The notes under the pieces are model-generated. The model saw only the letters and a list, made by a program, of their open reading frames with translations. It made no database searches and was not told where the DNA came from. Shown one piece after another: positions 8,751-39,675 of a stretch of DNA of 64,000 nucleotides (the stretch's first letter is position 1; every line of letters starts with the position of its first letter). Source of the stretch: Bacilli bacterium (GTDB lineage Bacteria > Bacillota_I > Bacilli_A > RFN20 > CAG-826); NCBI GenBank assembly GCA_022482735.1, contig JAKVOO010000001.1, forward strand, positions 838,837 to 902,836, in the 5' to 3' direction. The position numbers were made by a program, and so were the translations under genes.

Positions 8751-9719
8751 TTATTGTTCCCGAACAAAGAGTGAAACATCTAAAACTTTACGGGTTAGAT
8801 TTTCTTTAGTTCCACCGACAATCATTCGGTTAAGGCTTTCGACACTTTCATAGGCTATTTCAGTTGTCTTATGGTTAACGCTTGTAATATTTGGAAGGTA
8901 GGTCAAAAATTTCTTGATATTATCGAATCCAACCATCTGAATGCCTTTTATCTTGTCTTTTACATTCTGAATTTGTGAAAGGATGGAGTAACAAATGTCA
9001 TCATTGAAACAAACAATGCCTGTATTTTCGTCCAGCATCGAGCGGATTTCGCTGATGTTTTCATTATCAATAACGTCCGCATAGTAAAACTGAGGAACGA
9101 TTTTGGCATTCTTTAATCCATCTTTTAGTCCTTCATAACGACGAATCGAACATTCAATTTCTTTCGGGCCAACATAAATCACTTTTTGCGATTTGTTCTC
9201 CAAAAGATAATCGGCGACTAACTTTCCGCCTTTATAATCATCAGTACAAACATAACTGATAACATTGCTATCGCTTTTTCGACCAATTAATAAGACTGGA
9301 AGTGATGTTTGTTCAATAATTTCAAGGGCCTCTTCCGAAGGCTCAAGAAATGTCAGCACACCTTCAATTCGCTGTTGAATAATGCTCCGAAGAAGCGGGG
9401 GGCTAAGACGCGATGTCGGAGAGGGAATGATTAAGGCATCGTAACCAAAAGTCCGAAGTTTGCTAATCAGTTTATGGGCAGTTAAAGAAAAGTATGGGTT
9501 GCGCATATTATCGTATACTAGAGCTACGACGTGCGTGCGACCGTTTTTTAAAGAAACGGCATTCTTATTGGGAATGTATCCCAATTCCTTTGCCTTGTCC
9601 TTAACTTTTGTCTTTAGCGATTCGCTGATATCCGGGAGATCTCTTAAAGCATGGGAAACCGTGTTTTTCGATACTCCTAGAGCGTCAGCTAAATCCTGCA
9701 TGGAAATAAGGTTTTTCAT
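8751..9719 (-). CDS. LacI-family transcriptional regulator.
   Basis: N-terminal HTH 'MQDLADALGVSKNTVSHALRD' followed by a periplasmic-binding-fold domain. Confidence 0.9.
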   Translation of the reverse strand: MKNLISMQDLADALGVSKNTVSHALRDLPDISESLKTKVKDKAKELGYIPNKNAVSLKNGRTHVVALVYDNMRNPYFSLTAHKLISKLRTFGYDALIIPSPTSRLSPPLLRSIIQQRIEGVLTFLEPSEEALEIIEQTSLPVLLIGRKSDSNVISYVCTDDYKGGKLVADYLLENKSQKVIYVGPKEIECSIRRYEGLKDGLKNAKIVPQFYYADVIDNENISEIRSMLDENTGIVCFNDDICYSILSQIQNVKDKIKGIQMVGFDNIKKFLTYLPNITSVNHKTTEIAYESVESLNRMIVGGTKENLTRKVLDVSLFVREQ

Positions 9720-9998: not shown

Positions 9999-10661
9999 TC
10001 AACGAGTAGTAAACATCGATGCTAGTTTAAAGGCCGGCATTGTTTGTAGATATACTCGGCCCGGGCCTCTAAGAATAGTATTGAATATTCCTTCACCGCC
10101 AAGAAGTACATTTTTAACTCCTCCAACTGTTCGAATATCCATCTGCACTGTGGCATCCATTCCCGCGACATATCCCGTACTTACAATCAATTCCTCACCT
10201 ATTTCAAGATCTTTAATTACTACTGATCCATCAATCTCTAAAAAGGCGGTACCCTCCCCAGTCAACCTTTGCATAATAAAACCTTCGCCGCCAAAAACTC
10301 CGGCTCCTAGTTTTTTTCTAAAGAAAGTAGAAAGTTCTACGCCCATTTCAGCACAAAGAAAAGCTCGCTTTTGGGCGATAAATGGTTTATCAAAAGTAAT
10401 ATCAATGGGAATTATGGAGCCGGGCATACAGGACGCTAAACTGATTGTCCCCGGAGTGTTTTGTGCAGTATAGTAATTGAGGAAAAGACTCTCTCCAGAA
10501 AGTATTCTCCCAAATACCTTGCCCACATCTCCTCCTCGCGTTTCCATCTTCATATTAGGACTCATCCAAGCCATTCCACCGGCTTCGGTAATAATCGTTT
10601 CGTTTGCTTCAAGTTCGATATTAACTACTGGTAATTGTCCGCCATCAATTTGATACTTCAT
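9999..10661 (-). CDS. AIM24/DUF124 (TIGR00266) family protein.
   Basis: Family-typical pattern: MKYQIDGG..P.V.IEL..GE.I..EAGGM.WM, LSGESLF, GEGFIMQRLTGEG.AFL, GGEGIFNT.L.GPG.V.LQTMP. Confidence 0.8.
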   Translation of the reverse strand: MKYQIDGGQLPVVNIELEANETIITEAGGMAWMSPNMKMETRGGDVGKVFGRILSGESLFLNYYTAQNTPGTISLASCMPGSIIPIDITFDKPFIAQKRAFLCAEMGVELSTFFRKKLGAGVFGGEGFIMQRLTGEGTAFLEIDGSVVIKDLEIGEELIVSTGYVAGMDATVQMDIRTVGGVKNVLLGGEGIFNTILRGPGRVYLQTMPAFKLASMFTTR

Positions 10662-10968
10662 ATTTTGCTCATTTCTTTTTTGCTACTATTTTTTAATAGT
10701 CGATATTTATATAATACTCATTTTATGTTTATTATCTAAATAGTTTCCATATTAAAAAGAATGAAGTTACTCCAATTGCTTGGCCTTTTTATTTTTAAAG
10801 TGCGCTATTGCTTCTTATGATAAAAACGATATTAGGAACTAATATACTAATAATATAGATAACTATTATGCCTATGGCATATATTGCTTCGGAACTTATG
10901 TTGTTGCTCCCCATAGATCATGTTTAATTTAAAAACCAAGTTTTTTTTAGTTTAAACTGAAGTAATTA

Positions 10969-12147
10969 CTAAGCCGATTTTTCCTTGCCTATCCTTTTTC
11001 GACGACCAACGAGAAAACAAATTATAATAATCACTACAACGGCAGCAATTAAAGCAAGAATGTTGTTGGCTAAAATGGCAAGGATATCAAATACAATTGT
11101 AAGAATAAGTGAACCGATTAAAGTTATCAAGAAAATAACTCCTCGCGTTAATTCTCTTATGATGGGCAATATTGAGCCTATGACTTCTATAGGTGCAAGA
11201 ATCATTGATATTGCCAAAAAGAAGAGAGCAAGATATACAATACGCATGATCCATAGAAAAGTTTGGTGTTCGGTATTTAGTTGCTTCACGGCTTCAGCAA
11301 GGGTGCTTACTCCCGCAAAAAAACGTATATAAGATGAGTGTCTTGTCCCGAAAATAGTGACTTTTTTAGCATCGGCCTTAACTAGAGAATTATTCTCTAA
11401 CTTTCCTATCGCCACTCCTTCTTGTCCGCTCATGGCGGCTGTAACTTTTACCCTCTTACTTCCAAGAATTGTTTCTTCGGGAGAAGCATCAATATAAAGC
11501 GCGTCTTGAAAAACTCCTTGGTAAGTGTCCGCGTATAATGTGGCATCGATAGGCTGAACACCAAGACCTAGCATACTTATATCTGTATGGGAAATGGCCA
11601 ATCCATTTATTACGGCGCCTTCGGCACTGAGAGATGCGCTATGAGCATCAATATACAATTGCCAAGAAATCTGGTTGTCATCCACCGAAAATCCACTTGG
11701 CGCACTGCGGATTTCATCGCCCGGATCTCCCACTTTGACAAAGTTTGTCCAAGCTTTTGCCACCGTGTAATAATAAGAAGTTGTCTGACCGCCGCCAATA
11801 AGATCATCCTTTTTTATTTCGTGATGCGTATATACCCATGCGTAGACCTCAACATTAGCATGTAAAGTAAGAAAATCCCCACCATCCACATACTCATTAA
11901 TGAGCGGTTGGCCAGTTGAATTTAATTCCCCTTGTGTATAAACTAAAGCGCCTTCAGGCGAAGTGGCTGAATATTCTATCGCTTTCTTAGCGCTATTAGC
12001 TTGATTGGGTGTCCCCTCTATATGAAAAGGGAGAAATATTCCAATGATGAGTAGAAGAATCCCAATGAATACTGCGCCAATAGAATGGAGGAATCTTTGA
12101 AAAACATTTTCTCTTTTAACTGACATTTTTTTCTTTCCTTTCTTCAA
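10969..12147 (-). CDS. Membrane protein with one N-terminal TM, a ~260-aa extracytoplasmic domain and three C-terminal TMs. The topology resembles TMEM43/DUF1625.
   Basis: Hydrophobic segments at residues ~22-41 and three after residue ~300. No recognisable catalytic motifs. Confidence 0.4.
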   Translation of the reverse strand: MKKGKKKMSVKRENVFQRFLHSIGAVFIGILLLIIGIFLPFHIEGTPNQANSAKKAIEYSATSPEGALVYTQGELNSTGQPLINEYVDGGDFLTLHANVEVYAWVYTHHEIKKDDLIGGGQTTSYYYTVAKAWTNFVKVGDPGDEIRSAPSGFSVDDNQISWQLYIDAHSASLSAEGAVINGLAISHTDISMLGLGVQPIDATLYADTYQGVFQDALYIDASPEETILGSKRVKVTAAMSGQEGVAIGKLENNSLVKADAKKVTIFGTRHSSYIRFFAGVSTLAEAVKQLNTEHQTFLWIMRIVYLALFFLAISMILAPIEVIGSILPIIRELTRGVIFLITLIGSLILTIVFDILAILANNILALIAAVVVIIIICFLVGRRKRIGKEKSA

Positions 12148-12361: not shown

Positions 12362-14760
12362 TTAGGCAACAACTATATTGGTGAAAGCAACTTTTCTTGT
12401 CTGAGCTCTTAAACCATAGTATGTTCCTAGGAGCGGAGCGCTATCGGTAAAATCAATCAAAGCGACTTCATTAATACTAACTTGAATTCGCCCAGCGTTT
12501 ATTGCAATACTGACTGCGCTATTTTGCGTCAAGTAATCTCCCGCTGGCGCGGAAGCAAGAGTTGTCCACCCATTGTCAACTTTTGCCAATACTGCATCGT
12601 TATTTACGCTAATAAAGAAGAAATAGTATGAGGCATCTTCCCAAGTGACATTTGGATTATTGAGAGCAAAAATGACTCCATTATCTCCGTGAACGTCTTT
12701 TTCTTCCATCGAATAAGCAAAACTATTTGTCACTCCCGGTGTTTTAAAGACCGCCAAATTATCATTGGTCACCGTTTCGTAACCATTGGCGATTTCCTTT
12801 GTCCAGCCGTGATTATTGGTATAAGCTTCAGGGATTGGTTGATTACCTAACCCATTGGTTACGATACCGGCACTAGAATAGACGACATCCGGATTTTGAG
12901 CTCTTAAGCCCACTCGACTTCCGCTCAAAGGAGCACTATCGGTATATTCGATGACTTTTACTCCATCTACATAACACTCGATAAGTCCGTCTTCATGTAA
13001 TTCGGCCTTTAATTCGTAAGTATCCAGAGGGTCAAATCTCGTTTCCAAAATTGGCGAATAGGATAAGGTCGTCCAAACGGATGGCATCGTTTTGTCTACC
13101 TTGGCTAATAGTAATGTCGCATTGACATTCAGAAAGAAGAAATAATAAGAAACTCCGTCTTCGGTTTCCCAAAACGAACTATTGTCCCCAGTTGAAACTG
13201 CAAAGACGATACCCGAATCATTTTTGACTTGGGGAGTAATGTTTGCCTTATAGGCATTCCCAACAGTTATCGCATCCGTTTTAGCTAAAACTAGTGAACC
13301 GCCCGATTTAGAAGTAATATTTTCCGTCGTTTCATCAAAAGCTCCTGCGTAAAGATCGTAGTTAACGAGAGTATATTCTGGCCGTGGAGTAATTTCAGAC
13401 GAAACGGAAATATCCTTATATACTGTGTTGGCTTTTTGCGCCCGGAATCCATAGGATGTTCCGGTTAATGGGGAAGCATCTTGATAAGAAATCCTTTCAA
13501 ATCCATTGCAATAAACAATAATGGTTCCATCTTCTGACCACTCAACTTTTAAATCGTAATTCTTATTCATTGAAGCGTAGTCTGGCATTGATAACGACTT
13601 AAGTTCATTCCAGGCTCCATTACTTACCTTAGCTAGATAAATTCCTCCCCAAGCGGTTTTAAATGCAAAGTAATAACTAGCATCCGCCTCCCAGAAAAAT
13701 TTATTTTGATAAGATTGATCAAGTCCGAAAATAATGCCCGTATCTCCTTCATCTCCATTTTCAACAATGGTTGTTTCCATTGTGCCATGCGCCCAAGTAT
13801 CATTGCGGACTACCGCAAGAGAATCGTTGATAGTACTGACTAAATTATCGTTATCATCAAGAGCAAATTTCCCATTAGCAACGTTATATCCAGCGAATAA
13901 TGGATCAGTTTTAACATCCTCTTCTACTTGGGGACCATCAAAAATTGTTCCTTCACCGCTAGTGCGATATCCTACACTAGTGCCACTTAAAATTACCTCA
14001 TCATGATAACGAATATATTGCTTATCATTGACAAAACAATTAATGTTACCATCTTCAATCGATACTGCCAAAGAAACAGTATTACCATTGGTGTAGTTTT
14101 CAAGTGGTACCACATTGCCTAACTGGTTCCAAACCGACTCTCCATCGGCCGTTATTTTCGATAAATAAGCGTTATTATCTACATTAATAAAGAAGAAGTA
14201 ATACGCCGTTCCGCTCTCGCTTTCCCAAAAGTGATCACTGGTATGTGAAAGACCAAAAATAATTCCGGAATCACTAGTGCCTACACTATTTTTCGCCATA
14301 TCAACACTGTAGGTTCCTGTAGTAAAAGACATATCTTTAATTGAAACTAAACTATTGCTTTCACTCGATACAAGCGAACCATCTTCATACCGAAAACCAC
14401 CTTGATAAACATCATATCCTGCCAACTTATAAATAGCATGAACAACGATATCCTGCTCACCTAATGTATAGTCTTCCCAACTGCCAACATATCCGGTTTT
14501 AGTTGGGACGTCCGGTTCGACAATTGATGTATCGCCAATTGTGAAGGTGACTGTTTCTACCACTTCTCCATCTGCTAAAAAAGTAACTGTTTTCGTCAGT
14601 AAAACGGAAGAAGAATCTTCTACGGAAGAACTAGTATTTTCACTGGTAGGAACCTCTGTGGTACCACTCGTAGAACTACTAATTGAAGAAGAAATTTCGC
14701 CATTACAACTAGCAAGTAGTAACAGCGCTGTTATTGAAAGCGTCAATAAACCTTTTTTCA
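12362..14760 (-). CDS. Large surface lipoprotein with four tandem ~115-aa LamG/DUF1080-like beta-jellyroll repeats ('..IFGL...FWE...SYYFFFINV..A.L.KV.....W..L' ... 'G.R..G..F'). Probable start at 14760 (MKKGLLTLSITALLLLASCNG); the ORF track extends to 14794.
   Basis: Lipobox LLASC with a GGAAAGGA RBS before the ATG at 14760. Four internal repeats share the SYYFF(F/A)(I/L/K)N motif and a G.R(A/T)..G..(F/Y) C-terminal motif. Confidence 0.7.
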
Positions 14761-14836
14761 TATTGTTTTCCTTTCCGATATTTGGTTTATGCAATAATAA
14801 ATCCCTTTTTATTGTTATTTTTCCAATGTTATCCTC

Positions 14837-16582
14837 CTAATGTTTTTCCATAATTTTTTTGATAGTTGAAATATCAACTTTGACCTTGCGATCAATCGTA
14901 ACCAATCCATTTTTTTCCTGTTCAACATCACTAAATTGGGTGTAGCAGAAACCGGATAAATAAGGCAAATCATAAATAACCTCAATCAACTGCCGGTAGC
15001 GAGTGTAAAACTCTTCAATGCCATCGGTGGCGCCGCCATATCCCCATCCATCCGCGGTATCCTTTTTCAAGGCAGCTCCGCCAAATTCTGAAAAAATAAA
15101 TGGCTGTCCTTCATACTTGTATCCATCTGCCAATAAATTGCGCATCGACAATGAGGATGTTTTTCCGCTCATAACTAAATTAATATCCTTATAAAAACTC
15201 AAAAGTTTATCCGCCGATTGTTCATAATTATGAATAGTAAGAATATCGCTTTTTGTATGTTCCCAACCGTCGTTGCTTATTGCCGGTCGATAAGGATCAA
15301 ACGCTTTGGTTAATAAGTAAAGTGCATCTACAAAACTCTGTTCTAATCGATTTTCACTGATTTCTCGTATCCCCCATGATTCATTGAATAATACCCAAAC
15401 AAATATGGAGGGATGATTATAGTATTGATGGAGTATTTCCATCCATTCCTTAAGAACATTGCGATTGGCTTCAAGATTGAAAATATGGGGGGATGGCATC
15501 TCGCACCATACAATAAGTCCCAATTCATCACATAAAGCAAGAAATCTCTCATCAATGATTGTTTGATGAATTCGAATACCGTTGAATCCCAACTCCTTCA
15601 ATAAAAGAATATCTTTTCGAGCGCTCTCTAAGTCAGGCAAAGTCATATTGCTTAGTGGCCAATAAGCCTGGTATAAGCAGAGTTTAGAATAAAAGCTAAA
15701 GCCGTTGAGCAACAATTGTCCCTGATGAGCTCGATACTCTCTAAATCCAAAATATGAATCTACTTTGTCTTCTACTATTTGATCTTCACTAAGTGTCAAT
15801 TTGACATCATAAATCTTCGGCCTATCTGGATGCCAAAATTCATTTTGAAAAGAAAGATAAGGGCTTGCCAGTTCGATAACAATTTTCCCCGATGGATATG
15901 CTAAGGAAGTTATAACCCTGTTGGTGGCTATTCCCTCAAATGATATCTCACTACTCAAAGTAAGACCCGGATGAAAGTTATCAATAACATATTCAATTTC
16001 AACATTCATCTGCTCAACACGGGGGGTAACTTTTATTTCCCTAATCCGGGTGAAATTAATTCTTTCTAACCATACTGACTTCCAAATACCGCTGGCTTCC
16101 TTATACCAGCAACCAAAATTATCATTCATCCACTTTTGTTTGCCTCGGGGCTGAGCGACATTATAAGAGTCAAATGTCCGAACTACCAATTTGTTAACTC
16201 CCACTACCATCGCCTGATTAAGACATAGAGAAAAACGCGCATATGCCCCTTCATGACTGCCGATAAATTGGCCATTTAGATAGACGTCTGCCCGGTAATC
16301 AACCCCTTCAAAATTAATCATTACATCGTGTAGAAAATCATCTTTACTAATCGTGATTTCGCGCTGATACCATAAAACATCAACGCGTTTCTTTTGATTA
16401 ATTCCACTGAGCGGGGTGGAATAAACAAAGGGCACCTTTATGGTTTGACTTGCGTTAAAACCACGATAATAGCCTTCCTTTAAGCCTATATTTCCCTCAT
16501 CGAAAATAAATTCCCATTCTCCATCCAAAAGTTCGAAATTTTCACGTCTTAGTTGCGGGCGTGGATAACTGCTATTAATCAT
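14837..16582 (-). CDS. GH2-family glycoside hydrolase, intact 581-aa paralog of 734..2468.
   Basis: N-terminal segment 'WYQREI...FEGVDYRADVYLNGQFIGSHEGAYARF' matches the beta-glucuronidase sugar-binding domain. Acid/base 'VLFNESWG'. Nucleophile 'IFSEFGG'. Confidence 0.85.
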   Translation of the reverse strand: MINSSYPRPQLRRENFELLDGEWEFIFDEGNIGLKEGYYRGFNASQTIKVPFVYSTPLSGINQKKRVDVLWYQREITISKDDFLHDVMINFEGVDYRADVYLNGQFIGSHEGAYARFSLCLNQAMVVGVNKLVVRTFDSYNVAQPRGKQKWMNDNFGCWYKEASGIWKSVWLERINFTRIREIKVTPRVEQMNVEIEYVIDNFHPGLTLSSEISFEGIATNRVITSLAYPSGKIVIELASPYLSFQNEFWHPDRPKIYDVKLTLSEDQIVEDKVDSYFGFREYRAHQGQLLLNGFSFYSKLCLYQAYWPLSNMTLPDLESARKDILLLKELGFNGIRIHQTIIDERFLALCDELGLIVWCEMPSPHIFNLEANRNVLKEWMEILHQYYNHPSIFVWVLFNESWGIREISENRLEQSFVDALYLLTKAFDPYRPAISNDGWEHTKSDILTIHNYEQSADKLLSFYKDINLVMSGKTSSLSMRNLLADGYKYEGQPFIFSEFGGAALKKDTADGWGYGGATDGIEEFYTRYRQLIEVIYDLPYLSGFCYTQFSDVEQEKNGLVTIDRKVKVDISTIKKIMEKH

Positions 16583-16585
16583 AAT

Positions 16586-19050
16586 TTATTTAACTCCTGT
16601 AATTTTTAAATCCTTATAGTATGATTCGGCCGATATCGAATATAATCCAACCATACCATGGGTAAAAGGATCGGGATCGGTATATTCAAAAGCATATTCA
16701 CCATCAAAGTAAACTTTAATATTGTTGCCTTTGCATATCGCTCGCATTTCGTGATAAACATTAAGTGTAAAGTCGCCCGTTAGCGAGGCAACGGTCATTC
16801 CGTTATAATTCATCCGCTCCATCACTAGTTGCATGTTATTAAAGGTGACAAGATATCCCTCGGCACATTCGTTAACTTGCCCACTCATAATGGAAGGATT
16901 GAGTGTGCGCAACATAATTCCCGCCGATGCTCCATTGCTTGAATCCATCGTTATTTTAACTTTGACACTTACTTCATAATCGGTCATTCCTTCACTACCG
17001 AAAAGAAGCATATTATTACTTCCCGCTTTTGAGTAATGGGCCTGTTCCTGCTCATCAATTTTCCATAACGTCATATATTTAGAACCCTGACTCACATAGT
17101 CCGACAAGTCGTTTTCAAAATTGGGAGAAAATTCACTATCGACAAAGGTATTGTAATAAAGACTTTCATACTTACCTGATACCAATTCGAATTTGATTGT
17201 ATGCAATCCCTTAGTTAAAGGAAGCTCCAAAAGAAGGTTTTTAATATAGGTTAAATTTTCTTCATAACTGCCATAGTTGTTTGCAAAATTCGCTCCTGGA
17301 AGTTCAACTAGATATGGTAAATTGTTATCAATTTGAATAGTTATTTTGCTTCCAATCGAAGCCATTGAATAAGTGTTCTCGATACCATAGAATCCATCTT
17401 CAAGAACATCGATAGGGAAAACGATTTTATCTTTACTCTTGCTGAGACGAACTCCATTAGCTTCGGAATATATTAGACGATCATCATTAATATCGTGGTC
17501 TAGTGTATATTGACTATCAATTGTAGAAATGTCCTTTAAGTAATCAGTTGCAAACCAGTCACTTCCAACAATTTTCGCATCATCGCTCTGACTTGAGTCA
17601 AATGCCGCATTGGCAAATGTTGTGGTTCCAATTGATGATTGTTCCATTCCACCGTAACCGATCTTTCCTTTTAAGATTGTTTCAGAAATGGTGCTGTCAA
17701 TTTTTGTTAGATTATCGAATGCCACTTTAAGTCGTTGATTACCATAGCTTAAACGAAGTGTGTGCAGTTGCGTAAAATCAAATTCTCCAATTAAACTTCC
17801 TTGGGCTACAAGGACTTGATTGTAGTAAACGTTGATGCTTTTCCCATCAATTGTTGCGTAGCCACTATTAGTACCATCCACTCCAAAAAGGAATTTGCTA
17901 CTGCCATCCGACTTTATATCTTTAAAGTTATATTCGACCGAAAAGGTATCCGCCGTTGCTAATGATGAATAATAACTTCCGTTACTTTCTTCAAGCGAAC
18001 CTTCCTTTTCTCCCAAACTAGTATTATCTGAAAGAACGTAAAATTCCGGCATCATTGGAACCATCGCTCCTTGATAAGTCGGGCCTAAAACATTCATTCT
18101 CGTTCCCGAAAAAGTTAAACGGTTGATATTGAATGATCGAACTGGACCCGAAGCTGAATCCAAATTGTGGTATGCAATATAATAACTATCCAAATTGGGC
18201 CCCAGTACTGTTGAAGAATGACCTAGCCCGTTCTGCTCGCCCATACTGGATAGCAATAATGAATTATTGCTTGGATATTCAAATCCAGTCCGGGGAGAGG
18301 AGGAAAAGGAATAATCAACTCGGTATCCGCGCGACTTAACATGATTTCCCGTATAGGTAAGGAAATAATTATCATCATGTTTTATCATGTATGGGCCTTC
18401 TGTCCATTTTACTAACGGAGAATAGAGTTCTTCACCACTAGTGTTATCAATTTCGGTTGGAGAATTCATCTCATAGGAAGTTATCGCCCCATCGCCAGCC
18501 GCCATAAAATACATTTTTTCATCATCATCAATAAATACACTGCCATCAATTGAAAGACCAATGTTAGAAGTAACAGCCCTAAACTCACCAAATGGTTGGC
18601 GATCAACCGACTTAAAGATGTAATGCCCTTTACCATCCGGAGAAGAGTACATATAAAAGTCACCATTCCAATAAATAACTTCAGGAGCGTAAGCAGTATG
18701 AAGACCTGTTGTTGATCCATCAGCTTGGGTAAGAGGATACTCACCTAAATAACTATAGTGAATAAGATCATGTGACTTCCACACCCGATAGCCATATTCA
18801 AAATTTTTGGTGGAAGCATATAAATAGTACTCACCGTTAAATCGCATGACATAAGGATCGCCGATTCCATAATTACTCCATTGGTCGGGAATATTTCCTC
18901 ACCAAATATGTTGTCATATCGATCGCGCTCTTGTAGCTGATAATTTACTTCTGAGAAACCTTTTAAATTTTTCATATCATCTTTCCCTCCACATGAACTG
19001 AGCATCAACACAATCGGAAGGACCGTTAATAGAATTTTTGTTTTTTTCAT
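16586..19050 (-). CDS. GH43-family multidomain lipoprotein with a C-terminal LamG/DUF1080-like repeat. One frameshift near 18890..18900 separates the signal-peptide ORF 18745..19050 from the body 16586..18847.
   Basis: MKKTKILLTVLPIVLMLSSCGG then 'NIFGEE'. Shifting frame gives 'NIPDQWSNYGIGDPYVMRFNGEYYLYAS' (classic GH43 N-terminus). WTEGPYM acid. C-terminal domain '...GMVGLYSISAESYYKDLKI'. Confidence 0.8.
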
Positions 19051-21855
19051 ATGGCAACTCCTTTAGCAATTTGGCTATAAATTGTTCCTTGCCCATTAGC
19101 ACGAATGCCGTAACTTTCGCCCGTCAAGCGATTTAAATCCTTATAGGAAATTAACTTATTATCATTTAAATACCCATCGATGGTCTTCCCATTCCAAACA
19201 ACTTTTAGACTGTATTGATTGGCTAATTGATAGGCGGAAATACTAATCTTAGTTAATTCAGAATAAGTGCCATCAACAATTTTGCTTAAGACAAGATCGC
19301 CATTAATCGATATAAAATAGAAATAATACGATACGCCGCTTTCCCAAAAGTAGGTTTGATTATTAGTGGAAAGACCAAATATGAGCCCATTGTCACTAAA
19401 AGATGTTGCTTGAAGATTAACTGCGATAAAACTTCCATCATTAATGAAAGTGTCGCTGTTATTTACAAGAATGGAATAAGCAGAAGAGGCAACATAACTA
19501 TTATCATTTTTAGTGAAATCACCACTTGCGATATCGTAGCCAACGATTGTGTCATCAATTGGGGGAAGTGATAGTTGATCGCGAATTAAATCTCTTATTA
19601 GCTTATAGGCCCCGCGATTAAGATGCAGTCCATCGGCAAAATAACCATTAATATATTGATTTTCGCTATCTAAGAATAAATTTGCCGTATCGATAAACTT
19701 GATGTTGGCACTGGCTGTTGCTAGTGATGATAAATAACTATCAATTTCATCGATGCTCGTTTTATATTGATCACGCATTGGACACTTGTGGATTCCGATG
19801 ATGACAACAACCAAGTCGGGCATTTGCTCTTGAATTTGATTTATGAATAGACTGTAATTATTCTTAATTACTTGGGCGCTGGCTCCCATTGGCAAATCAT
19901 TAGTTCCCATATCAATAAATAGCGTTGAAGGATTGTATGTTTTTATAATTTCAAGCATCGATAACCAGTAGGTGGTTGTCGTTCCTCCAACTCCTAGATT
20001 TGTAACGCTGCCGACGCCATTAAGATCAATGCTGGCATTTGCCCATAGTTCCATAATTGAATCCCCAACAATCAAAGCATCTGTTTGATCATTAGTAAGG
20101 TTGGAGTTGCTATTTAAGGAGCTAAAAATTGTTCCTTTAAAAAGAGACTTAATTCCAAATTGATTACCACTAAGCGGATTCTCATCACGGAATAAAATCA
20201 GTAATTTGTTTTCAAAATAGCCTTTTATGAGGCCCTCCTCAAAAGAGACCTTTAAGTTGTATTGGCCTATTAACGCTATAACCCGCGGTTAAAAGACGAG
20301 TGGAGAGATTAGTGATGGTTCCATTTTCTACTCGATCAAGAACTAGCTCGTGACCGGTATTGATCATTAATTGATAATAACTGGCATTATTCTCATAGAA
20401 AGAATCGCTATTTGACGCTAATCCAAAGACGAGCCCGTACTGATTGAGTCGAAGGGCAACCGCATCGATACTTAAGGTGCCTCTATCTAAAGTAGCATCA
20501 CTTTTTATCATCAGTGATGATTGCGCTGTAGCGACATAGCCACCATCGTTTTTATATCCACCGCTAACCGTATTAAAACCGGAAATAGCTTCGCCTGGTT
20601 CATCGTTCGTATCAACAATTGTTGATTCACTGGTAACAAGAGGACTAAAAGTGACTCCTTCTGCTCCTGCTCGTAATCCAATTCGTGTCCCTGTAAGAAA
20701 TGAACTGTCCGTATAAGTAATATAGACCGTGTCGTCTATCAGCCCATATATCGTATTGCCTACTACAACCACCCTCAAATTAATCGTTTTATTGGTCGTA
20801 AAACTGGCGACATTAGATGAAACTTGTATCGTATTCCACGTTCCATTTACCACCTTACCCAGAAAGGCATTACTGTCGCGATTGATAAAGAAGAAATAAT
20901 ACGATGCTCCGCTTTCCCAAAACAATGCATCCGTAGCTGATAGGCCAAATACAATGCCATTATCGGAGAAACTGGGTGTATTCATCGTTGCTGTAATGGT
21001 TCCTTGATTGAAACCAACCTCTGATAAAGTCATCAATGAATTTGCACTACTCGATGTATAGTTTCCATCATTGTTTTTAATAAAAGTTCCACTATTGATC
21101 ATATAATTATCTATCTCCTCGGTTTGGACTCCCGTTTGATTAATTGCCACATATGTATTAGGAATTTGCGGATCAGGCGTCCACCCAAACCAATCTGATG
21201 TCGTCAAATTGGTCGTCTTATTCCGACAACCAAAAGCAATGCCAACGGTCGAGGCTTGGTCAAAGCCAAACGTTTCATAAGGTAAAAATAATTCTACCGA
21301 CCAAGAGATATCATCGTCGGCATCATTATTGAGAGTGCCATCAATGCTGACCGCATAATCAACAACCCCACTCCAAGGTCCCCACCATTTGCCCCCGCCA
21401 ACTTGAAGCATGGCGTACCCTTCCGGATTAATTAAGAACTCATAATCATCAGTTTGCGGACCATTGCCTCCATCATGTTTTGTATCAATATAAAATTCGA
21501 CATTGTCGCTATTAATAACAAATTCTGAATCAGAGTAATTTGTTGAAGCGCTGATAAATTGATCTAATAATGTAAAACCGACGGTCAATCCTTTTTCGCC
21601 CCAAAATATTTTAGAAGAAACACGGTTGTTTTCTCCAAAATGACAATTAAAAATATCGGGATCGCTCCATTCTTCCTCATCAAGAACACCATCGATTTTT
21701 AAATCGCTAGCTACCATATTTCCTGGATACGTAAAGTCGCTATTGCCTGAAGACTTATCATTTTGACTTGCATAATCGCTCGGGTTAATTCCACATGAAC
21801 TTAATGCCAATAGTCCCCCGGCTAATAAAATTACCCAATTAAAGTGTTTTTTCAT
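19047..21855 (-). CDS. Multidomain surface lipoprotein: CBM9-like domain, two LamG/DUF1080-like repeats, an SGNH/GDSL esterase domain (putative acetyl-xylan/carbohydrate esterase) and a third LamG-like repeat. A 1-nt frameshift at ~20245..20252 splits it into ORFs 20239..21855 and 19047..20075.
   Basis: Lipobox LALSSCG. 'IDGVLDEEEWSD...DNVEFYIDTKHDG...DDYEFLI' is CBM9-like. Reading across the frameshift, repeat 2 continues in-register ('...RPIQLK|VSFEEGLIKGYFENKLLILFRDENPLSGNQFGIKSLFKGTIF'). The SGNH frame has no stop back to 20289. SGNH blocks: GDS (IVGDSIME), GTND, DGLHLN. Confidence 0.75.
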
Positions 21856-21869
21856 TTTCAGCGCTCCTT

Positions 21870-22772
21870 TTAATTGTCTTTTGAACTTGAAAGCATAAAA
21901 GTATTCACAAAATATTTTTGAAACACAACATAAATTGCAATCGTGGGAATACTCGATAAAACCGAGCCCGCCATAATCGTCGGAAGATTCTTCAAGGTTC
22001 CACTTCCGGTTTGATTATCCAAATACTTAATCATTACTTGAATAGTTTTATTGTTTAGAGTTTGAAGGTAAATGTCGGGTCCAAAGACATCATTCCAAAT
22101 TCCCAAGAACCAAAATATTACTTGAGCGGCAATAGCTGGACGAACTAAGGGTAGGAATATATTCCAATACAAACGGAAAAATCCACATCCATCCACCTCC
22201 GCCGCTTCGTAGACACTATCTGGAATACTTAAAGCATATTGGCGAAGAAAGAACATCATCGAAACATTGCCGAAAAGTCCCGGTAAAATTAATGGATATA
22301 AAGTGTCGACCAATCCTAGATGAGAAAAAGCACTAAATTGAGGGGTCAAAACTGTAATATAGGGAACCATCATTGTCGTAAGTACCATATAAAATAGGAA
22401 GTTTTTACCTCTAAAACGAAGTCGAGCAAAAGCAAAGGCTGCCATTGTTGTCGACAATGTTCCAAACGATATTACAAAGGCCTCGATAATTAGGGTGTTA
22501 ATGAAACCTCGGGCCAAAGGAATTATCGTAAAAATATCAACATAATTACTGAGGGTAAATTCTTTGGGAAATAGATAGAAGGCTAAGTTGTTTACTACTT
22601 CATTTCCTGACTTAAATGACATTGAAAGCATATATAAGTAAGGAAATAGCATTAAGAAAGCAACAAATAAAATAATGAACAGAACGATAACTTTAATCGT
22701 ATAAAAGGAGGCACTATAATGTTTTTTATTTGTTTTTGGCGCTATATTTTTAGCAATATTAACTGAGTTCAT
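21870..22772 (-). CDS. Carbohydrate ABC transporter permease (MalG-like).
   Basis: Multi-TM protein with the EAA region 'YEAAEVDGCGFFRLYWNIFLPL'. Confidence 0.85.
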   Translation of the reverse strand: MNSVNIAKNIAPKTNKKHYSASFYTIKVIVLFIILFVAFLMLFPYLYMLSMSFKSGNEVVNNLAFYLFPKEFTLSNYVDIFTIIPLARGFINTLIIEAFVISFGTLSTTMAAFAFARLRFRGKNFLFYMVLTTMMVPYITVLTPQFSAFSHLGLVDTLYPLILPGLFGNVSMMFFLRQYALSIPDSVYEAAEVDGCGFFRLYWNIFLPLVRPAIAAQVIFWFLGIWNDVFGPDIYLQTLNNKTIQVMIKYLDNQTGSGTLKNLPTIMAGSVLSSIPTIAIYVVFQKYFVNTFMLSSSKDN

Positions 22773-23719
22773 TACGCGCGGGCTCCTTTTTTTAATTTCC
22801 GAGAACTAAAATTTTTCCGCCCACTTCCCACGTGGAGAAACTTAAATAAGAACAATGTCACAATTAGTAACCCAACAAAAACAAAGAGACTGCCCGCGCT
22901 AACTAATCCATAATTACCCTTTTTCATCTCATTCCATAGATAATAGACGATAGTATTGGCACTAGAAGAACTAACAATTATATAGTTATCAGCAAAGGCT
23001 AATATTCCCCCGATTACCGAAGTAATAAGGACATAAAAAGTTGTTTGTTTTACTAATGGGATAGTTATTTTAAAAGTTTTATAAAATAGATTAGCTCCTT
23101 CAATATCGGCGGCCTCATATAATTCATGAGGTATATTCTGCATGGAGGCAAAATAGAGCAACAAGGTGCCGCCTATTCCTCCCCATACGCCTTTGATTAT
23201 AAGAGTTATCTTTACAATTCGAGGATCACTAAGCCAGAGAATATGCGTATTAAATATTTGATTAATTGCTCCGTAATCGGCATTAAATAACCATTTCCAA
23301 ACTAATCCAACGGCGATTGCCGAGCTGACTGCTGGAAGATAATAAATAATTAGATAAGGTTTCTTAATCTTGCAATACTTGGAATTGATTAAAGTGGCTA
23401 ATACGAATGATAAGACCATTCCCACTGGGATTCCCATCATTAAATATAGGGTGTTAGTAATTGATTTAATAAAATTGGGATCGGCAAACAACTCTTGAAA
23501 ATTGCCCCAGCCAATATAATTGCCCGCCCCAGGATTGTAATTGAAATCGGTCAATTCATGGAAAGAGGCAAATATAGAATAAAGAAGAGGAATGAAGGTA
23601 AACAAAAGAAAGCCGATCACCACTGGAGCTACAAATAAGTAGCCCGCCATTTGCTCCTTAAATCGTCGATTGCTAACTTTGATTTTTAAACGGTTAAGTA
23701 TATTCATCATTATTACCAA
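22772..23719 (-). CDS. Carbohydrate ABC transporter permease (MalF-like).
   Basis: Multi-TM protein with 'YEAADIEGANLFYKTFKITIPL'. Confidence 0.85.
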   Translation of the reverse strand: MVIMMNILNRLKIKVSNRRFKEQMAGYLFVAPVVIGFLLFTFIPLLYSIFASFHELTDFNYNPGAGNYIGWGNFQELFADPNFIKSITNTLYLMMGIPVGMVLSFVLATLINSKYCKIKKPYLIIYYLPAVSSAIAVGLVWKWLFNADYGAINQIFNTHILWLSDPRIVKITLIIKGVWGGIGGTLLLYFASMQNIPHELYEAADIEGANLFYKTFKITIPLVKQTTFYVLITSVIGGILAFADNYIIVSSSSANTIVYYLWNEMKKGNYGLVSAGSLFVFVGLLIVTLFLFKFLHVGSGRKNFSSRKLKKGARA

Positions 23720-25236
23720 GCATATTTGGAAGTCGTTTTATCTAAAATCGTTTGACACCGGTCTTCTAAGCCTGATAGAAATTCACTATTAATTCGACTA
23801 TTAGTATTCCAATCCCAAACATTGAGATGACCTCCGTATGAAGAAGTTAACGACCAAACTCGAAACAGTTTATAGTTATCATCGGATGATTCCCACATTT
23901 CATCATACCAATCTGCGTTATAGGTGTAGGCTTGAGGCCGCCTTTCACTATTGGCCATCATATCAAGATATACTTGGCGATTTAACGGGCGATTATAACC
24001 CATAGTTGCATTTTTAGGGTCATTAATCGTTGCCTCCATAAATTCGCCATTAGCCATATCAATTAGATTCGGCACCGCTTGTCCTAATTGATAATTTATT
24101 TTTTGCGCCACCGGTGAAGCGGTTAAAAATTCGGCCAATTTATACGCGCCTTCTGGATCTTTACTACCTTTATAACAGGAAATACCCACTGATCCCAAAA
24201 AGGATTTTGATGATGCTCCACTGCGATATCCATCCTGCCAATTATCAAGATTGCCAGTGGCATTGGGAACTGGTGTATATAGAATATCCCAATCAAAATT
24301 GCACTCCCATAGTTCTGGTGTGTCCCAAGCTCCAACGAAAGCGGCTCCTGCTAAACCACTGGAAAAGCGTTGTAAGCCCGCTTGTGAGGCTTGACCTTCC
24401 GCCGTTGTCATTACTTGGTACTTGTTGGATAAGTCAGCAACAAATTGAAGTGATTCGGCAAAGTTATTATTATCAATGGTAACTGTTTTATTGCTAGCGT
24501 CTAAAAAGCGTTGTCCCATTGAAGCCATGGCGCTTTCTAATGGATAATGAGTAATACCTACAATAGAATTAGAGTCACTTAACGACCCTTCCTTTATGTC
24601 TTGGCAGAAAGCAACAAATTGTGCCCAAGTCATCGCCACTTTATCATTTAAAGTTTTCGTGGAAGGATTATATCCATATTGACCACTAACATCACTGATA
24701 ATTGTGACCCCTTTGCTTTGAACAAGCGTTTTGTTATAAGCCAAAACATTAGGTCCTAAATCCTTTGGCAAAGCATAGATATCCCCCGTTCCTAATCTTT
24801 TACTTGCCGTGTCATATCGATAGGCATCAATTCCTTCATTCCAAATATTGTCAATTGACATCGCACTTGATTGTTCAATATATGGGGTTAAATCCATCAT
24901 AATATCCGATGAGTTGATCCATTGAACAAAGTTGATATCCGGCATATAGAAGACATCCGGCATATTACGGGTGTTGTTCTTATAACTGCCTAAGGTCGTT
25001 ATGTAATTATCGGAAGTAACAGAAGAATATACGACATCATATTGAGGATATTCCTTAGTAAATTCCGCGATCATTGTTTTAAAAATTTGTTGCTCGGCAA
25101 CTGACCCCCAGCCAAAAAACTTCAGTACTGATTTTTTGTCACCGCTCGAATCAGAAGTTCCTCCGCAAGCTGAAAGTACTAAGGATAAAAACATTGTCGC
25201 CATAAATGAAAGGCTGATTTTTTTAGTTTTGCGCAT
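23713..25236 (-). CDS. Extracellular solute-binding lipoprotein (sugar ABC transporter).
   Basis: MRKTKKISLSFMATMFLSLVLSACGG lipobox. About 500 aa, SBP family 1 size. Confidence 0.8.
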   Translation of the reverse strand: MRKTKKISLSFMATMFLSLVLSACGGTSDSSGDKKSVLKFFGWGSVAEQQIFKTMIAEFTKEYPQYDVVYSSVTSDNYITTLGSYKNNTRNMPDVFYMPDINFVQWINSSDIMMDLTPYIEQSSAMSIDNIWNEGIDAYRYDTASKRLGTGDIYALPKDLGPNVLAYNKTLVQSKGVTIISDVSGQYGYNPSTKTLNDKVAMTWAQFVAFCQDIKEGSLSDSNSIVGITHYPLESAMASMGQRFLDASNKTVTIDNNNFAESLQFVADLSNKYQVMTTAEGQASQAGLQRFSSGLAGAAFVGAWDTPELWECNFDWDILYTPVPNATGNLDNWQDGYRSGASSKSFLGSVGISCYKGSKDPEGAYKLAEFLTASPVAQKINYQLGQAVPNLIDMANGEFMEATINDPKNATMGYNRPLNRQVYLDMMANSERRPQAYTYNADWYDEMWESSDDNYKLFRVWSLTSSYGGHLNVWDWNTNSRINSEFLSGLEDRCQTILDKTTSKYAW

Positions 25237-25394: not shown

Positions 25395-26326
25395 ATGCGG
25401 AAATTAACTTTAAATCTAAATGACGACAATATCTTAGAAAAGATTGGCGATTCGTTCTCCTCACCCATTCGGCGTAAGATTTTACGTTTGGTGGCCAATA
25501 AATCCTATTCTATATATGAGATTGCTCAAGAATTGAATTTATCAATGTCAACGACCTCCTTTCATATTAAGATTTTAAAGGAAGCGAAAACTTATTAAAG
25601 CTATACCTTCCCCCTCCAAAAAAGGAAATGAGAAAAATGTCTCAATTGAGTGTGAATCAATGACCATATTTGTTAATGGTGATTCGGAAATAAGTAATTT
25701 AAGAAAGATAGTCACTATTCCCCTTGGCTCTTTTATCGATTACTGACATTACTCCCCCCTGTGTAATTTGCACTAAAGAAATGGCTCTTCAACCTATTGA
25801 TGATCGCAATGTTTTTTTGTCACCCTCCCGTATTCAGGCCCAATTAATATCTTTTTATAAAGGGCATATTACTTTTCCTATTCCCCTTGATAAAGAAGAA
25901 GGAACCCAATTGGAATCGATAACTATTTTCATGGAACTTTGCTCTGAATGTCCCAACTACAACAATAGTTGGAAAAGTGATATTACTTTTTGGATTAATG
26001 GTCAAGAAATTGCCACCTACCTTTCACTAGGAGATTACGGCGATCGCCGTGGTGCTTACACTCCTTCGTGGTGGCCATCTAGTTCAACTCAATATGGCAT
26101 GCCCGTCAACCTCCGTATTGATATGGATGGCACTTATATAAATGGTGCCAAAGCTAGTTCGATAACCATTAATAGCCTTGGAATAAGAAACAATGAAGTT
26201 CTCCATTTTACTCTGGGAGTGAAGGATGATGCAAAATACGTTGGAGGCATTAACCTTTTCGGAAGAAATTTTGGGGATATAAATGAAGATATTACCGTGC
26301 AAATTGCCTTTGAAAGAAAAAAATAA
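25395..26326 (+). pseudogene. ArsR-type wHTH regulator with a ~200-aa C-terminal domain of unknown function, paralog of 42920..43853. Disrupted by at least 2 frameshifts into ORFs 25395..25598 and 25724..26326, with an out-of-frame homologous segment between them.
   Basis: HTH 'SSPIRRKILRLVANKSYSIYEIAQELNLSMSTTSFHIKIL'. The C-terminal domain shares 'ELCSE.PN.N.WKSDITFW.N..E..TY.SLGDYGDR.G..TP..WPS..QYG' and '..F..G.KDDAKYVGGINLFG.NFGD' with the paralog. The gap segment 'IVTIPLGSFIDY' aligns to 'LVEVPIGSYSAF' in a different frame. Confidence 0.65.
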
Positions 26327-26652: not shown

Positions 26653-28911
26653 TTAAATACCTTCCTTAAATATTCTTTGATCTCGAGCACGATTAACATA
26701 ATGAATTATGATGATTGCCATAATAAAGGCCGCAAGGAAGATAAATGATGTCCACCACCAAGTCCCAATGAGATATACCATACTTCCAACCAAGAAGGAG
26801 GCAATAAGCCAGAAAGCAATTGTCGATATAAACTTTCCTTTTGGTAGTTCAGCTTTGGCTGTAGCAACTGCCGCAAAACAAGGAACCGTTGTCATATTAA
26901 AAGCAACAAATGCTAGTAATCCGGGAACGGTAATATTTGTCGCCTGGGCCATAACCATTACCGCTTGAATCCCCTCTTCATCGCCAGCAAAACCGGCGAC
27001 AAGGCTAGCAGCCAAAGTTCCAAAAGTAGCGATTACGTTTTCCTTAGCAATTAATCCGGTAATTGCTCCGACAACGAAGACCCATCCAAACTCTCCTAAT
27101 TGAGAGCCAAAACCCATCGGCGTAAAAATTGGAGCAAGAAATTTTCCAAAATTGGCGAGAATGGAAGCTCCCATTTCTTCATCACTTAAAAATTGAAAAC
27201 TAAATGAGAAATGCGAAATAAACCAAATAAGAATGGTCGAAGCAAGAATAATGGTAAATGCCTTTTTTACAAAGTGCTTGGTTTTATCCCATAAATGAAC
27301 CATAAGCGATTTAAATTGAGGGATGTGGTAGGCAGGAAGTTCCATAATAAATGGTGGAACTTCACCACGCATTGTCGTATTTCGCATAAATATAATTGCA
27401 ACAATGGCACTAACCATTCCTAACAGATACATACCAAGAGTTATAAATTCCGCATTGCCAATACCAAACATTTGCACAATTCCGCCGCTTATTGCCGTTA
27501 AAATCGGCAATTTGGCTCCGCAACTAAAGAAAGGAATAACTCTGATCGTCGCCGTTCTTTCATTGTCATCGGCTAATGTACGCGTATTGATCATAGCCGG
27601 AACTGAGCAGCCAAAGCCCATAATCATCGGCATAAAAGCGCGCCCAGATAGACCAAACTTACGGAATATACGATCAAGAATAAATGCCACTCGAGCCATA
27701 TAGCCGCTATCTTCTAGAATGGAAAAGAAAAGGAATAAGAATAAAATCTGTGGTAAGAAAGATAAAACCGCAAATAGTCCTCCAAGAACTCCATCGACTA
27801 AAAACCCACTGACCCATTGAGGAGAACTTGCTAAGGCCGTTCCGGCAATCTCGGATAACCATCCAGTTACATTATCAAGAAAATTGAAAAGAATAACTCC
27901 TGGTGAGTTTATTCCTCCATTGGCAAACAATCCTTCAAATATCGTTCCCGGGAAGGATACAAGTCCGTCAGGACCCAATAAGTGCATCGCATTGAGATAG
28001 AATAAATCTTCCGCAAAGGTCAAATGAAATATAAGAAAAAGAATAAATATAAAAATCGGTATTCCCAGCCATCTATTTGTTAGTATTCGATCTGCTCGGT
28101 CAGACGGAGTTCCTTTTTTGCTTTTATGATCTTGGCTATGAGTCTTTACTTGTGCAAAATGATGAGAAATATATTTATAGCGCGCATCCGCAATTACCGC
28201 TTCAAAGTCATTGCCAAACACTTCATCCCTAAAGCCATCTTTATACTCCTCAACCATCGAAACAAGATTAGGATGATCCTTAGTTTCTAACTCATCTAAT
28301 TCAGCCAATTTAATCGCATGGAATAAAGCGTTAGGAACATTTAGACCGCGGAAAGCAATTTCACAATCACTTATAAGGTGTCTTAAAGAATTGTTTTCAA
28401 GAACCGTCGTTGCTTTTCTTTTTGATAGCGATGCCTCATATGCCACTTTCATCAGATGCTCAATATTGTCTTCACGCAAGGCACTAATTGGAACAACGGG
28501 CACTCCAAGTTTCGATGACAATTCCTTTACATCAATTTTTTCTCCCCGTTTATTAACCACGTCAATCATATTAAGAGCAATCACTAACGGAGTATCAATT
28601 TCCATCAATTGCGTAGAAAGGTATAAGTTTCGTTCTAAGTTTGTAGCATCGACAATATTGATAATACAATCGGGTTTTTCATTGAGAATATAGTTTCGAG
28701 AAATAACTTCTTCCGGAGTATAAGGTGAAAGCGAATAAATACCTGGAAGATCAACAATCGAAATTGGTTCAACTCCCTTGCGGTATGTTCCCTCGCGCTT
28801 ATCAACTGTGACTCCCGGCCAATTACCCACATGAGCGGTTGAACCCGTTAAAAGATTAAATAATGTTGTCTTACCTGAATTAGGATTTCCTGCTAACGCA
28901 AAATGTTTCAT
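26653..28911 (-). CDS. feoB: Ferrous iron transporter FeoB.
   Basis: N-terminal G-domain 'LAGNPNSGKTTLFNLLTG' followed by a large polytopic membrane domain. 752 aa. Confidence 0.95.
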   Translation of the reverse strand: MKHFALAGNPNSGKTTLFNLLTGSTAHVGNWPGVTVDKREGTYRKGVEPISIVDLPGIYSLSPYTPEEVISRNYILNEKPDCIINIVDATNLERNLYLSTQLMEIDTPLVIALNMIDVVNKRGEKIDVKELSSKLGVPVVPISALREDNIEHLMKVAYEASLSKRKATTVLENNSLRHLISDCEIAFRGLNVPNALFHAIKLAELDELETKDHPNLVSMVEEYKDGFRDEVFGNDFEAVIADARYKYISHHFAQVKTHSQDHKSKKGTPSDRADRILTNRWLGIPIFIFILFLIFHLTFAEDLFYLNAMHLLGPDGLVSFPGTIFEGLFANGGINSPGVILFNFLDNVTGWLSEIAGTALASSPQWVSGFLVDGVLGGLFAVLSFLPQILFLFLFFSILEDSGYMARVAFILDRIFRKFGLSGRAFMPMIMGFGCSVPAMINTRTLADDNERTATIRVIPFFSCGAKLPILTAISGGIVQMFGIGNAEFITLGMYLLGMVSAIVAIIFMRNTTMRGEVPPFIMELPAYHIPQFKSLMVHLWDKTKHFVKKAFTIILASTILIWFISHFSFSFQFLSDEEMGASILANFGKFLAPIFTPMGFGSQLGEFGWVFVVGAITGLIAKENVIATFGTLAASLVAGFAGDEEGIQAVMVMAQATNITVPGLLAFVAFNMTTVPCFAAVATAKAELPKGKFISTIAFWLIASFLVGSMVYLIGTWWWTSFIFLAAFIMAIIIIHYVNRARDQRIFKEGI

Positions 28912-34290: not shown

Positions 34291-34360
34291 AAATGTTTTC
34301 CTTATAAATGTTCGATAAAACTTCCAGCAAAAAAGTTATTGCTGGAAGTTTTTTTAATGT

Positions 34361-39672: not shown

Positions 39673-39675
39673 TTA

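Follow-up and report, generated by a model that had tools for sequence, protein, structure and literature searches.

A CBM66-like repeat module and its SGNH esterase in a glycan-utilisation operon of an uncultured Bacilli bacterium

The stretch of 64,000 nucleotides (nt) analysed here and called the window (contig JAKVOO010000001.1 of assembly GCA_022482735.1, positions 838,837 to 902,836 of the forward strand) belongs to an uncultured 'Bacilli bacterium' with a small genome. Its minus-strand genes from position 25236 down to 12362 form a tightly packed operon of seven genes, of the type involved in polysaccharide utilisation in Gram-positive bacteria. Two lipoproteins encoded in this operon, A and D, carry several copies of one module, which in D lie on both sides of an SGNH esterase domain. 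It is likely that this module, to judge from profile comparisons and a predicted fold, is a carbohydrate-binding module (CBM) similar to CBM66, that it works in a typical glycan-utilisation operon and that the splits seen in two of the operon genes are assembly errors.

The repeated module and its relationship to CBM66

Seven clearly related copies of the module are found, four in protein A (A1 to A4) and three in protein D (D1 to D3), with lengths of 157-169 amino acids (aa), typically about 165, and pairwise identities of 22-38%. The similarity of a copy in A to a copy in D (BLASTP E 3e-23) goes far past what chance would give. A hidden Markov model (HMM) of the seven copies recovers all of them with domain E-values of 1e-56 to 1e-71, and it finds four domains in the frame 12365..14836, two in 20242..22014 and two in 19050..20288. 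In the six-frame translation of the window it finds no further copies except for the C-terminal domain of the GH43 lipoprotein C, a distant relative that has 13-19% identity with the seven copies (hhalign to the family profile gives 89.8%, with 19% identity) and lacks the FGL, FWE and SYYFFF landmarks. An earlier note on this DNA had described a unit of ~110 aa that occurs at least eight times in four lipoproteins. The unit proves to be longer, a whole beta-sandwich domain; the count holds for seven close copies, the eighth being the distant domain of GH43; and three lipoproteins carry the module, four open reading frames (ORFs) having been seen only because D is split. The four copies that the note placed in 12362..14760 correspond to four HMM domains, in a gene that starts at 14761, and the three placed in 19047..21855 were recovered as D1, D2 and D3.

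Across 39 diverse copies the near-invariant residues are, in the numbering of D1, D56, G58, F61, W71, E72, Y77, Y78, W98, G151 and R153. At the DNA level, matches between repeats extend over only 26-50 nt of the conserved motifs, with 60-89% identity, so the duplications are old and the array does not consist of recent tandem DNA repeats.

By profile and by predicted fold, the closest solved structure to the module is the CBM66 of the Bacillus subtilis levanase SacC (BsCBM66). A profile of the seven sequences, compared with all PDB sequences, matched BsCBM66 (4B1L/4AZZ/4B1M) over its full length with an E-value of 9e-5, and a profile of 39 sequences, which included repeats of homologues, matched it in the C-terminal half with an E-value of 8e-7; neither profile gave another significant PDB sequence match. 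The AlphaFold2 model of D1, made with the 39-sequence alignment, is all-beta and has a predicted local distance difference test score (pLDDT) of 94 and a predicted template modelling score (pTM) of 0.91. When it is compared with the PDB by Foldseek, the top five places go to BsCBM66 (4B1M, 4B1L, 4AZZ), with TM-scores of 0.72-0.80 and root-mean-square deviations of 2.3-2.9 Å, and the superposition covers 161-164 columns with 18% identity. Galectins, C-terminal sandwiches of GH32 enzymes, the DUF1080 structure 4JQT (36th) and the lectin domain of galactocerebrosidase are ranked below BsCBM66. The lectin-type fold that the earlier note expected of the repeats is borne out, since the best match in both sequence and fold is a bona fide carbohydrate-binding module.

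CBM66, whose founder is BsCBM66, resembles the module described here in being a beta-sandwich of ~160 aa appended to carbohydrate-active enzymes, including GH43. CBM66 modules are found on GH43 and GH32 enzymes and on pectate lyases, and their known ligands are levan, through its terminal fructofuranose, and xanthan treated with lyase, the latter for the module of a Cohnella xanthanase (PMC11002231; PMC12678895). In contrast to CBM66, the present module is arrayed in tandem, with 3-4 copies here and up to 8-12 in relatives, mostly together with SGNH esterases rather than with GH32, and its operon has no fructan-degrading enzyme.

Whole-protein Pfam matches to PF06439 (DUF1080, renamed 3keto-disac_hyd) and to PF19763 (DUF6250) are spread over proteins A, C and D. 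The PF06439 cut-off of 26.8 bits is exceeded by protein A (31.3 bits) and by protein C (41.8 bits), in which the C-terminal domain is a regular member of this family and the only clear one. DUF6250 is above its cut-off on A, with a match that covers only the last ~50 positions of the model. Both families belong to the same concanavalin-A-like superfamily as the module, but the characterised DUF1080 proteins are single-domain enzymes, whereas the module is arrayed here. Of the two Pfam families proposed for the repeats in the earlier note, PF06439 is thus reached by whole proteins A and C, and Laminin_G_3 (PF13385, cut-off 27.6 bits) was rejected, as it matches only the GH43 C-terminus, at 18.6 bits and an E-value of 0.0022, and none of the seven repeats.

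Single-base splits of the esterase and GH43 genes

In this assembly gene D is seen as one ORF of 538 aa (20239..21855) and another of 342 aa (19047..20075), and its halves are deposited as MCH3976785.1 (538 aa, LKE36_04215) and MCH3976784.1 (335 aa), on a contig of 1,481,977 bp. Frame 0 terminates with ...RPIQLKGLF and a stop codon, the +1 frame carries the domain on as VSFEEGLIKGYF..., and the HMM finds positions 1-120 of repeat D2 in one frame and positions 116-178 in the next. A search with the reconstructed D protein returned P0001, of 935 aa, which differs only at residues 530-533 (GQYN instead of RPIQ), and deletion of base 20268 from the window gives an ORF identical to P0001. This protein is encoded without interruption on six independent contigs (L001-L006), all with 99.7-99.9% DNA identity to the window; two of them, one 1.48 Mb long, are from JGI metagenomes, and four are from Logan assemblies of different runs. 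As the gene is uninterrupted in six assemblies and the removal of one base reproduces P0001, D is read as a single gene, and a stand-alone SGNH protein of 342 aa is not supported. The length of 935 aa that the earlier note predicted for the fused protein is exactly that of P0001, and its order of domains (CBM9-like, repeat, repeat, SGNH, repeat) is matched by Pfam and the HMM. Its 1-nt shift at ~20250 is indeed a single-base shift, caused by an extra base that stands at 20268, ~18 nt upstream of that place. The second repeat runs in register across the junction, as the note had said, and the true junction reads ...YSVNGQYNLKVSFEEG... and not ...NRPIQLK followed by VSFEEG.

Gene C is broken in a similar manner, into a 101-aa ORF with the signal peptide (18745..19050) that overlaps a 753-aa ORF (16586..18847). 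A base is missing at position 18893, where AAAA has become AAA, and this base is present in all six of the other assemblies. Addition of one base at this position gives an 821-aa GH43 ORF with three aa substitutions relative to the copy in L001, and two of the contigs, L001 and L002, carry the complete gene, with 821 uninterrupted codons, next to the gene for P0001. The span 16586..19050 that the earlier note gave for GH43 contains a GH43 with a distant C-terminal relative of the repeat, where the note had placed a copy, and also crosses a frameshift that the note did not mention.

Nine 1-nt indels private to the window were found in the ~40 kb compared (about one per 4.5 kb), at positions 20268, 18893, 25586, 25744, 49434, 49654, 50774, 53136 and 56665. 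Those at 25586 and 25744 are insertions that break the HTH_5 regulator, and the five that lie 25-35 kb away (49434-56665) break an RCC1-repeat protein, a GFO_IDH_MocA oxidoreductase, an epimerase and a GGDEF protein. At every indel site all of the other assemblies (3-6, depending on the site) agree with one another. From this comparison, the splits of D and GH43 are most likely single-base errors of this assembly and not biology, and a single 1.48-Mb contig of a metagenome-assembled genome (MAG) with a private indel roughly every 4.5 kb would fit an unpolished long-read assembly.

Real mutations in that one population are the formal alternative, a less likely one that counts against the assembly-error explanation. 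According to a stronger form of it, which is quite unlikely, D, GH43 and the HTH_5 regulator are becoming pseudogenes in a strain that is losing the locus. The indels do stand in the deposited NCBI assembly, whose annotation gives the genes as split; of the four that occur within 22.8 kb around the locus, three strike the locus and its regulator, and two lie outside homopolymers. However, five more private indels are found in unrelated genes 25-35 kb off, with 3-6 concordant assemblies everywhere, and the reconstructed D protein equals P0001 apart from four out-of-frame residues, which, in the absence of any drift beyond them, gives no sign of relaxed selection; the single 1.48-Mb MAG contig also hints at a long-read assembly, in which such errors are typical. 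Programmed ribosomal frameshifting, which would join the halves of D (and of GH43), is compatible with two halves that are both open and in register and with a domain that is seamless across the junction, but a conserved recoding site would occur in all of the near-identical genomes, and in these one uninterrupted frame specifies the same protein. Neither 20268 nor 18893 shows a slippery heptamer, and the orthologous DNA in one frame rules this mechanism out, leaving it a negligible probability. An alternative code, with TGA read as Trp, is unnecessary, as table 11 gives long ORFs and the indels explain the breaks. The public annotation of this MAG thus splits at least two genes of carbohydrate-active enzymes (CAZymes), and several others, through single-base indels, and both the 935-aa esterase and the 821-aa GH43 are to be counted as intact when the glycan-degrading capacity of the organism is catalogued.

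The operon, its enzymes and its relatives

From upstream to downstream, the operon encodes the binding lipoprotein, two permeases, D, GH43 (C), GH2 and A (Table 1). Lipoproteins were recognised by reading the translations by eye for a lipobox L-[AS]-[GAS]-C, which ends N-terminal signal peptides as ...LLLASC19 in A, ...LMLSSC20 in C, ...LALSSC21 in D and ...LVLSAC in the binding protein. Besides the four repeats, protein A has a Ser/Thr-rich linker and a weak Flg_new-like domain; no catalytic family was found in it in Pfam or NCBIfam, and NCBIfam returned no family for A or C. Scans for promoters and terminators gave scores no better than those of shuffled sequences.

Table 1. Features of the operon and its surroundings, in coordinates of the window
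Feature	Coordinates	Strand	Evidence
ATP-binding cassette (ABC) sugar-binding lipoprotein, first operon gene, 507 aa, lipobox LSAC	23713..25236	-	Pfam SBP_bac_1, E 1.8e-23; lipobox read from translation
Two ABC permeases	22772..23719 and 21870..22772	-	ORFs; overlap or abut neighbours; BPD_transp_1 on identical genes in L001
Gene D, 935-aa lipoprotein (CBM9-like, repeat, repeat, SGNH, repeat), split by one extra base	19047..21855	-	ORF after deletion of base 20268; intact in L001-L006
CBM9-like domain of D, aa 54-226	21178..21696	-	Pfam CBM9_1, borderline
Repeat D1, aa 248-408	20632..21114	-	HMM E 3.7e-71; AlphaFold2 pLDDT 94; top PDB fold match BsCBM66
Repeat D2, aa 424-582, across frameshift	20109..20586	-	HMM in two frames; in register with other repeats
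Window-private 1-nt insertion inside repeat D2, T on + strand (A on coding strand)	20268..20268		Absent from 6/6 independent assemblies
SGNH/GDSL esterase domain of D, aa 591-760	19575..20084	-	Pfam Lipase_GDSL_2; motifs
Repeat D3, aa 770-931	19062..19547	-	HMM E 2.8e-67; BLASTP vs A1, E 3e-23, 36% identity
Gene C, 821-aa GH43 lipoprotein, lipobox LSSC, split by one missing base	16586..19050	-	Pfam; assembly comparison
GH43 catalytic domain, aa 65-315	18107..18859	-	Pfam; putative Asp65, Asp169, Glu218
DUF1080-type C-terminal domain of GH43, distant eighth relative	16589..17140	-	PF06439 E 1.6e-10; seven-copy HMM E 5e-6
GH2, 581 aa, without signal peptide	14837..16582	-	Pfam GH2 domains
Gene A, 799-aa lipoprotein from MKKGLL, lipobox LASC	12362..14761	-	ORF, Pfam, repeat HMM
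Repeat A1, aa 113-279	13925..14425	-	HMM E 1.7e-69
Repeat A2, aa 289-453	13403..13897	-	HMM E 5.4e-71
Repeat A3, aa 465-633	12863..13369	-	HMM E 1.3e-64
Repeat A4, aa 643-799	12365..12835	-	HMM E 2.9e-56
Divergent HTH_5 (ArsR-type) regulator, 309 aa in other assemblies	25395..26326, start approximate	+	Assembly comparison

The SGNH domain of D matches Lipase_GDSL_2 with 64.1 bits (cut-off 32.9 bits, E 3.1e-17), and by motif inspection the four SGNH blocks are kept: block I as VGDS599, block II as GVGG624 (Gly623/624), block III as GTN652D and block V as D741GLH744. The nearest PDB entries are 6NJC, a sialate O-acetylesterase, 7PZG and PAF-AH Ib, with E-values of ~5e-8. Blocks I, II, III and V are common to D and to the SGNH sialate O-acetylesterases and PAF-AH Ib-type acetylhydrolases (6NJC, 7PZG, 1FXW), but D stands in a context of GH43, GH2 and CBM9 rather than of sialidase, and from this context its substrate would likely be an acetylated plant or microbial glycan. 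The CBM9-like domain is close to the CBM9_1 cut-off of 23.4 bits, with 23.6 bits for the isolated N-terminus and 20.3 bits in full-length D; homologues carry precomputed PF06452 matches.

The catalytic domain of C matches Glyco_hydro_43 with 115.6 bits (cut-off 32.2 bits, E 3.6e-33) and presents the catalytic-acid motifs GIGD65P, SID169G and WTE218G, whose roles are assigned from motif position. The closest PDB entry is 4QQS (E 7.5e-30), an alpha-L-arabinofuranosidase of Halothermothrix orenii (PMC4356313). The middle of the protein, aa 325-637 (17141..18079), has two beta-rich regions without significant Pfam match. In the GH43 orthologue of a related locus, L012, the equivalent region has a weak match to CBM_35_2 (8e-5), and GH43 probably carries additional binding modules. 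The GH2 enzyme would be cytoplasmic, because it has no signal peptide. By closest similarity it belongs to the group III furanosidase clade, as its closest PDB entry is 7XYR (GH2_19; E 1.2e-89, full length), followed by the beta-D-galactofuranosidase 9J6M/9J6N (~1e-53), and group III (GH2_18/19) is a furanosidase group (PMC12243196). Its NE motif is intact (LFNE400SWG, Glu400) and the putative nucleophile lies in FSEFGG.

The operon is conserved across Firmicutes. The same gene set is found in a Bacilli MAG (L009, 4740..15457) and in a human-gut Clostridia MAG (L012, 9614..22036), where the HTH_5 regulator, the binding protein and the two permeases are accompanied by a CBM9 protein, a GH2 enzyme (~581 aa), a multi-repeat protein and a GH43 of ~830 aa that ends in a PF06439 domain. 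How the modules are placed in these proteins differs, and repeat-bearing proteins have from 2 to 8 repeats. The L012 locus has a free-standing CBM9 protein (256 aa) and, in a protein of 1315 aa, an SGNH domain with three repeats on either side; in L009 the CBM9 protein has two repeats as well (580 aa), and eight are found in a protein of 1562 aa. A fixed gene set, with modules shuffled between orthologous proteins, is an example of domain-level rearrangement. No representative of the same species was found in the scan of genome contigs, in which the best relative was 43% identical.

When 1.84 billion representative proteins were searched with a profile, the module was found in 4,222 clusters (50% identity) at E<=1e-3 and in 196 clusters at E<=1e-30, and single proteins have as many as 8-12 copies in tandem. 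Among 40 multi-domain relatives, chosen for carrying extra non-repeat sequence, 24 have a GDSL/SGNH domain; Flg_new, Big_3, Cadherin-like and BNR_2 domains and esterases of other kinds are further partners. The esterase flanked by lectin-like modules that the earlier note predicted is in agreement with the intact SGNH blocks of D and with these relatives and, as judged from the domain composition of the sequences, is a recurrent and conserved architecture.

Gram-positive polysaccharide-utilisation loci are composed of multimodular cell-surface CAZymes and CUT1-type ABC importers. The operon resembles them in having a binding lipoprotein and two permeases alongside surface glycoside hydrolases and carbohydrate esterases, a cytoplasmic exo-glycosidase and regulators, and differs in that anchoring is by lipobox and not by sortase or S-layer homology domains. 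In comparison with Bacteroidota, the non-catalytic four-module protein A would take the role of SusE/F-like surface glycan-binding proteins.

Candidate regulators are the divergent HTH_5 gene and a LacI gene at 8751..9719, downstream of the operon. The stretch 9999..12147, between the operon and the LacI regulator, encodes a member of the AIM24 family (E 2e-69) and a membrane protein that resembles TMEM43. FeoB is encoded at 26653..28911, among Feo iron-transport genes, and past these a 597-aa ORF at 30012..31805 has no Pfam family and is conserved in L001.

Proposed function and alternative roles of the module

From this context we infer a mechanism in which the repeats are shared glycan-targeting units rather than spacers, the two roles that the earlier note had offered. 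The SGNH esterase of the lipid-anchored protein D would remove O-acyl (probably acetyl) groups from a glycan at the cell surface, while its three CBM66-like modules and its CBM9-like domain would hold the polymer. The GH43 enzyme, also lipid-anchored, would trim side-chain furanosides outside the cell, and the non-catalytic protein A, with its four modules, would retain the glycan at the surface by avidity; the repetition of the module, four times in A and three times in D, may give both avidity and reach. Oligosaccharides would then be imported via the ABC system, formed by the binding lipoprotein and the two permeases, and the cytoplasmic GH2 would complete their hydrolysis.

The most likely target would be an acetylated plant glycan decorated with arabinofuranosyl groups, for example arabinoxylan or arabinan, and a galactofuranose-bearing glycan is the alternative. 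A furanose-decorated target is suggested by the arabinofuranosidase nearest to GH43, by the furanosidase group of GH2 and by GH51 and GH10 genes nearby. The GH51-type alpha-L-arabinofuranosidase (Alpha-L-AF_C, E 2e-32) is encoded at 32803..34290, 11 kb upstream of the operon, and fits the use of arabinofuranosides; the GH10 xylanase is encoded at 38512..39672. This xylanase belongs to an island of ~12 kb (34112..46269), which is replaced by ~1.3 kb in the same-species assembly L015 and which also contains a second ABC sugar operon, an apparently split GH1 (43868..44827 and 44796..45254) and two large proteins without Pfam match, at 34361..36094 (577 aa) and 36164..38425 (753 aa). An exact look-up of the 753-aa protein gave no match, in a region that is strain-variable.

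Several observations weigh against a carbohydrate-binding role like that of CBM66, or limit what can be concluded from it. Single repeats of the seven-copy subfamily are below every Pfam gathering cut-off (best E 0.0015-0.029; PF06439 0.029). In the HMMER alignment, the W-E, Y-Y and R residues of the subfamily fall opposite a gap, G-Y and N in BsCBM66, and the D-x-G of 'DNG' is also unmatched, which suggests a binding site different from that of BsCBM66; given these unmatched conserved residues and the 18% identity, the fold and family relationship to CBM66 are transferable to the module and the ligand specificity is not. The DUF1080 family has enzymes among its members, namely the 3-keto-disaccharide hydrolase BT2157 (PMC8121099) and an endoglucanase/xanthanase of Thermogutta (PMC10881899). 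For the esterase, the similarity to sialate O-acetylesterases and PAF acetylhydrolases is weak and does not point to one particular acyl substrate.

The differing signature residues are also in line with repeats that are inert structural spacers, a stalk that holds the esterase off the membrane; in addition, protein A has no catalytic domain, arrays of beta-sandwiches are common stalks in surface proteins, and Flg_new, Big_3 and Cadherin-like domains are among the partners of the module. This is unlikely, as D56, W71, E72, Y77, Y78 and R153 are kept across the 39 diverse copies and spacers rarely keep such polar and aromatic residues; moreover, the best relative in sequence and structure is a functional CBM, and the module is selectively associated with esterases and found on both sides of SGNH. 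Very unlikely is a catalytic role, in which the repeats would be DUF1080-type domains (3-keto-glycoside hydrolase/lyase or GH16-like endoglucanase) and A and D multi-enzyme arrays. The enzymes just cited, the PF06439 matches above cut-off on A and C and the near-invariant Asp and Glu of the repeat are in line with it, but at E<=1 the only solved structure that the family profile matches is CBM66, with none of the DUF1080 proteins, and 4JQT is 36th by fold. In addition, tandem arrays with 4-12 copies in one protein are what binding modules typically form and catalytic domains do not, and the operon lacks the oxidoreductase required by the 3-keto pathway.

The carbohydrate-binding role is thus preferred, and within it the 'DNG...FWE...YYFFFIN...G.R' module may represent a distinct carbohydrate-binding subfamily or a new CBM family, with a ligand unlike the two known for CBM66, which co-evolved with SGNH esterases as their targeting partner, in avidity arrays, in small-genome Firmicutes. 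This proposal is tentative, though far from implausible; candidates for such a ligand are, among others, terminal arabino- or galactofuranosides and O-acetylated sugars.

None of these findings overturns the current understanding of such systems. The operon is a typical multimodular glycan-utilisation operon with one modestly new element, an uncharacterised subfamily of CBM66-like modules associated with SGNH esterases. The ligand of this subfamily would extend the specificity map of CBM66 and DUF1080 and would aid the prediction of substrates for many loci of gut and rumen Firmicutes.

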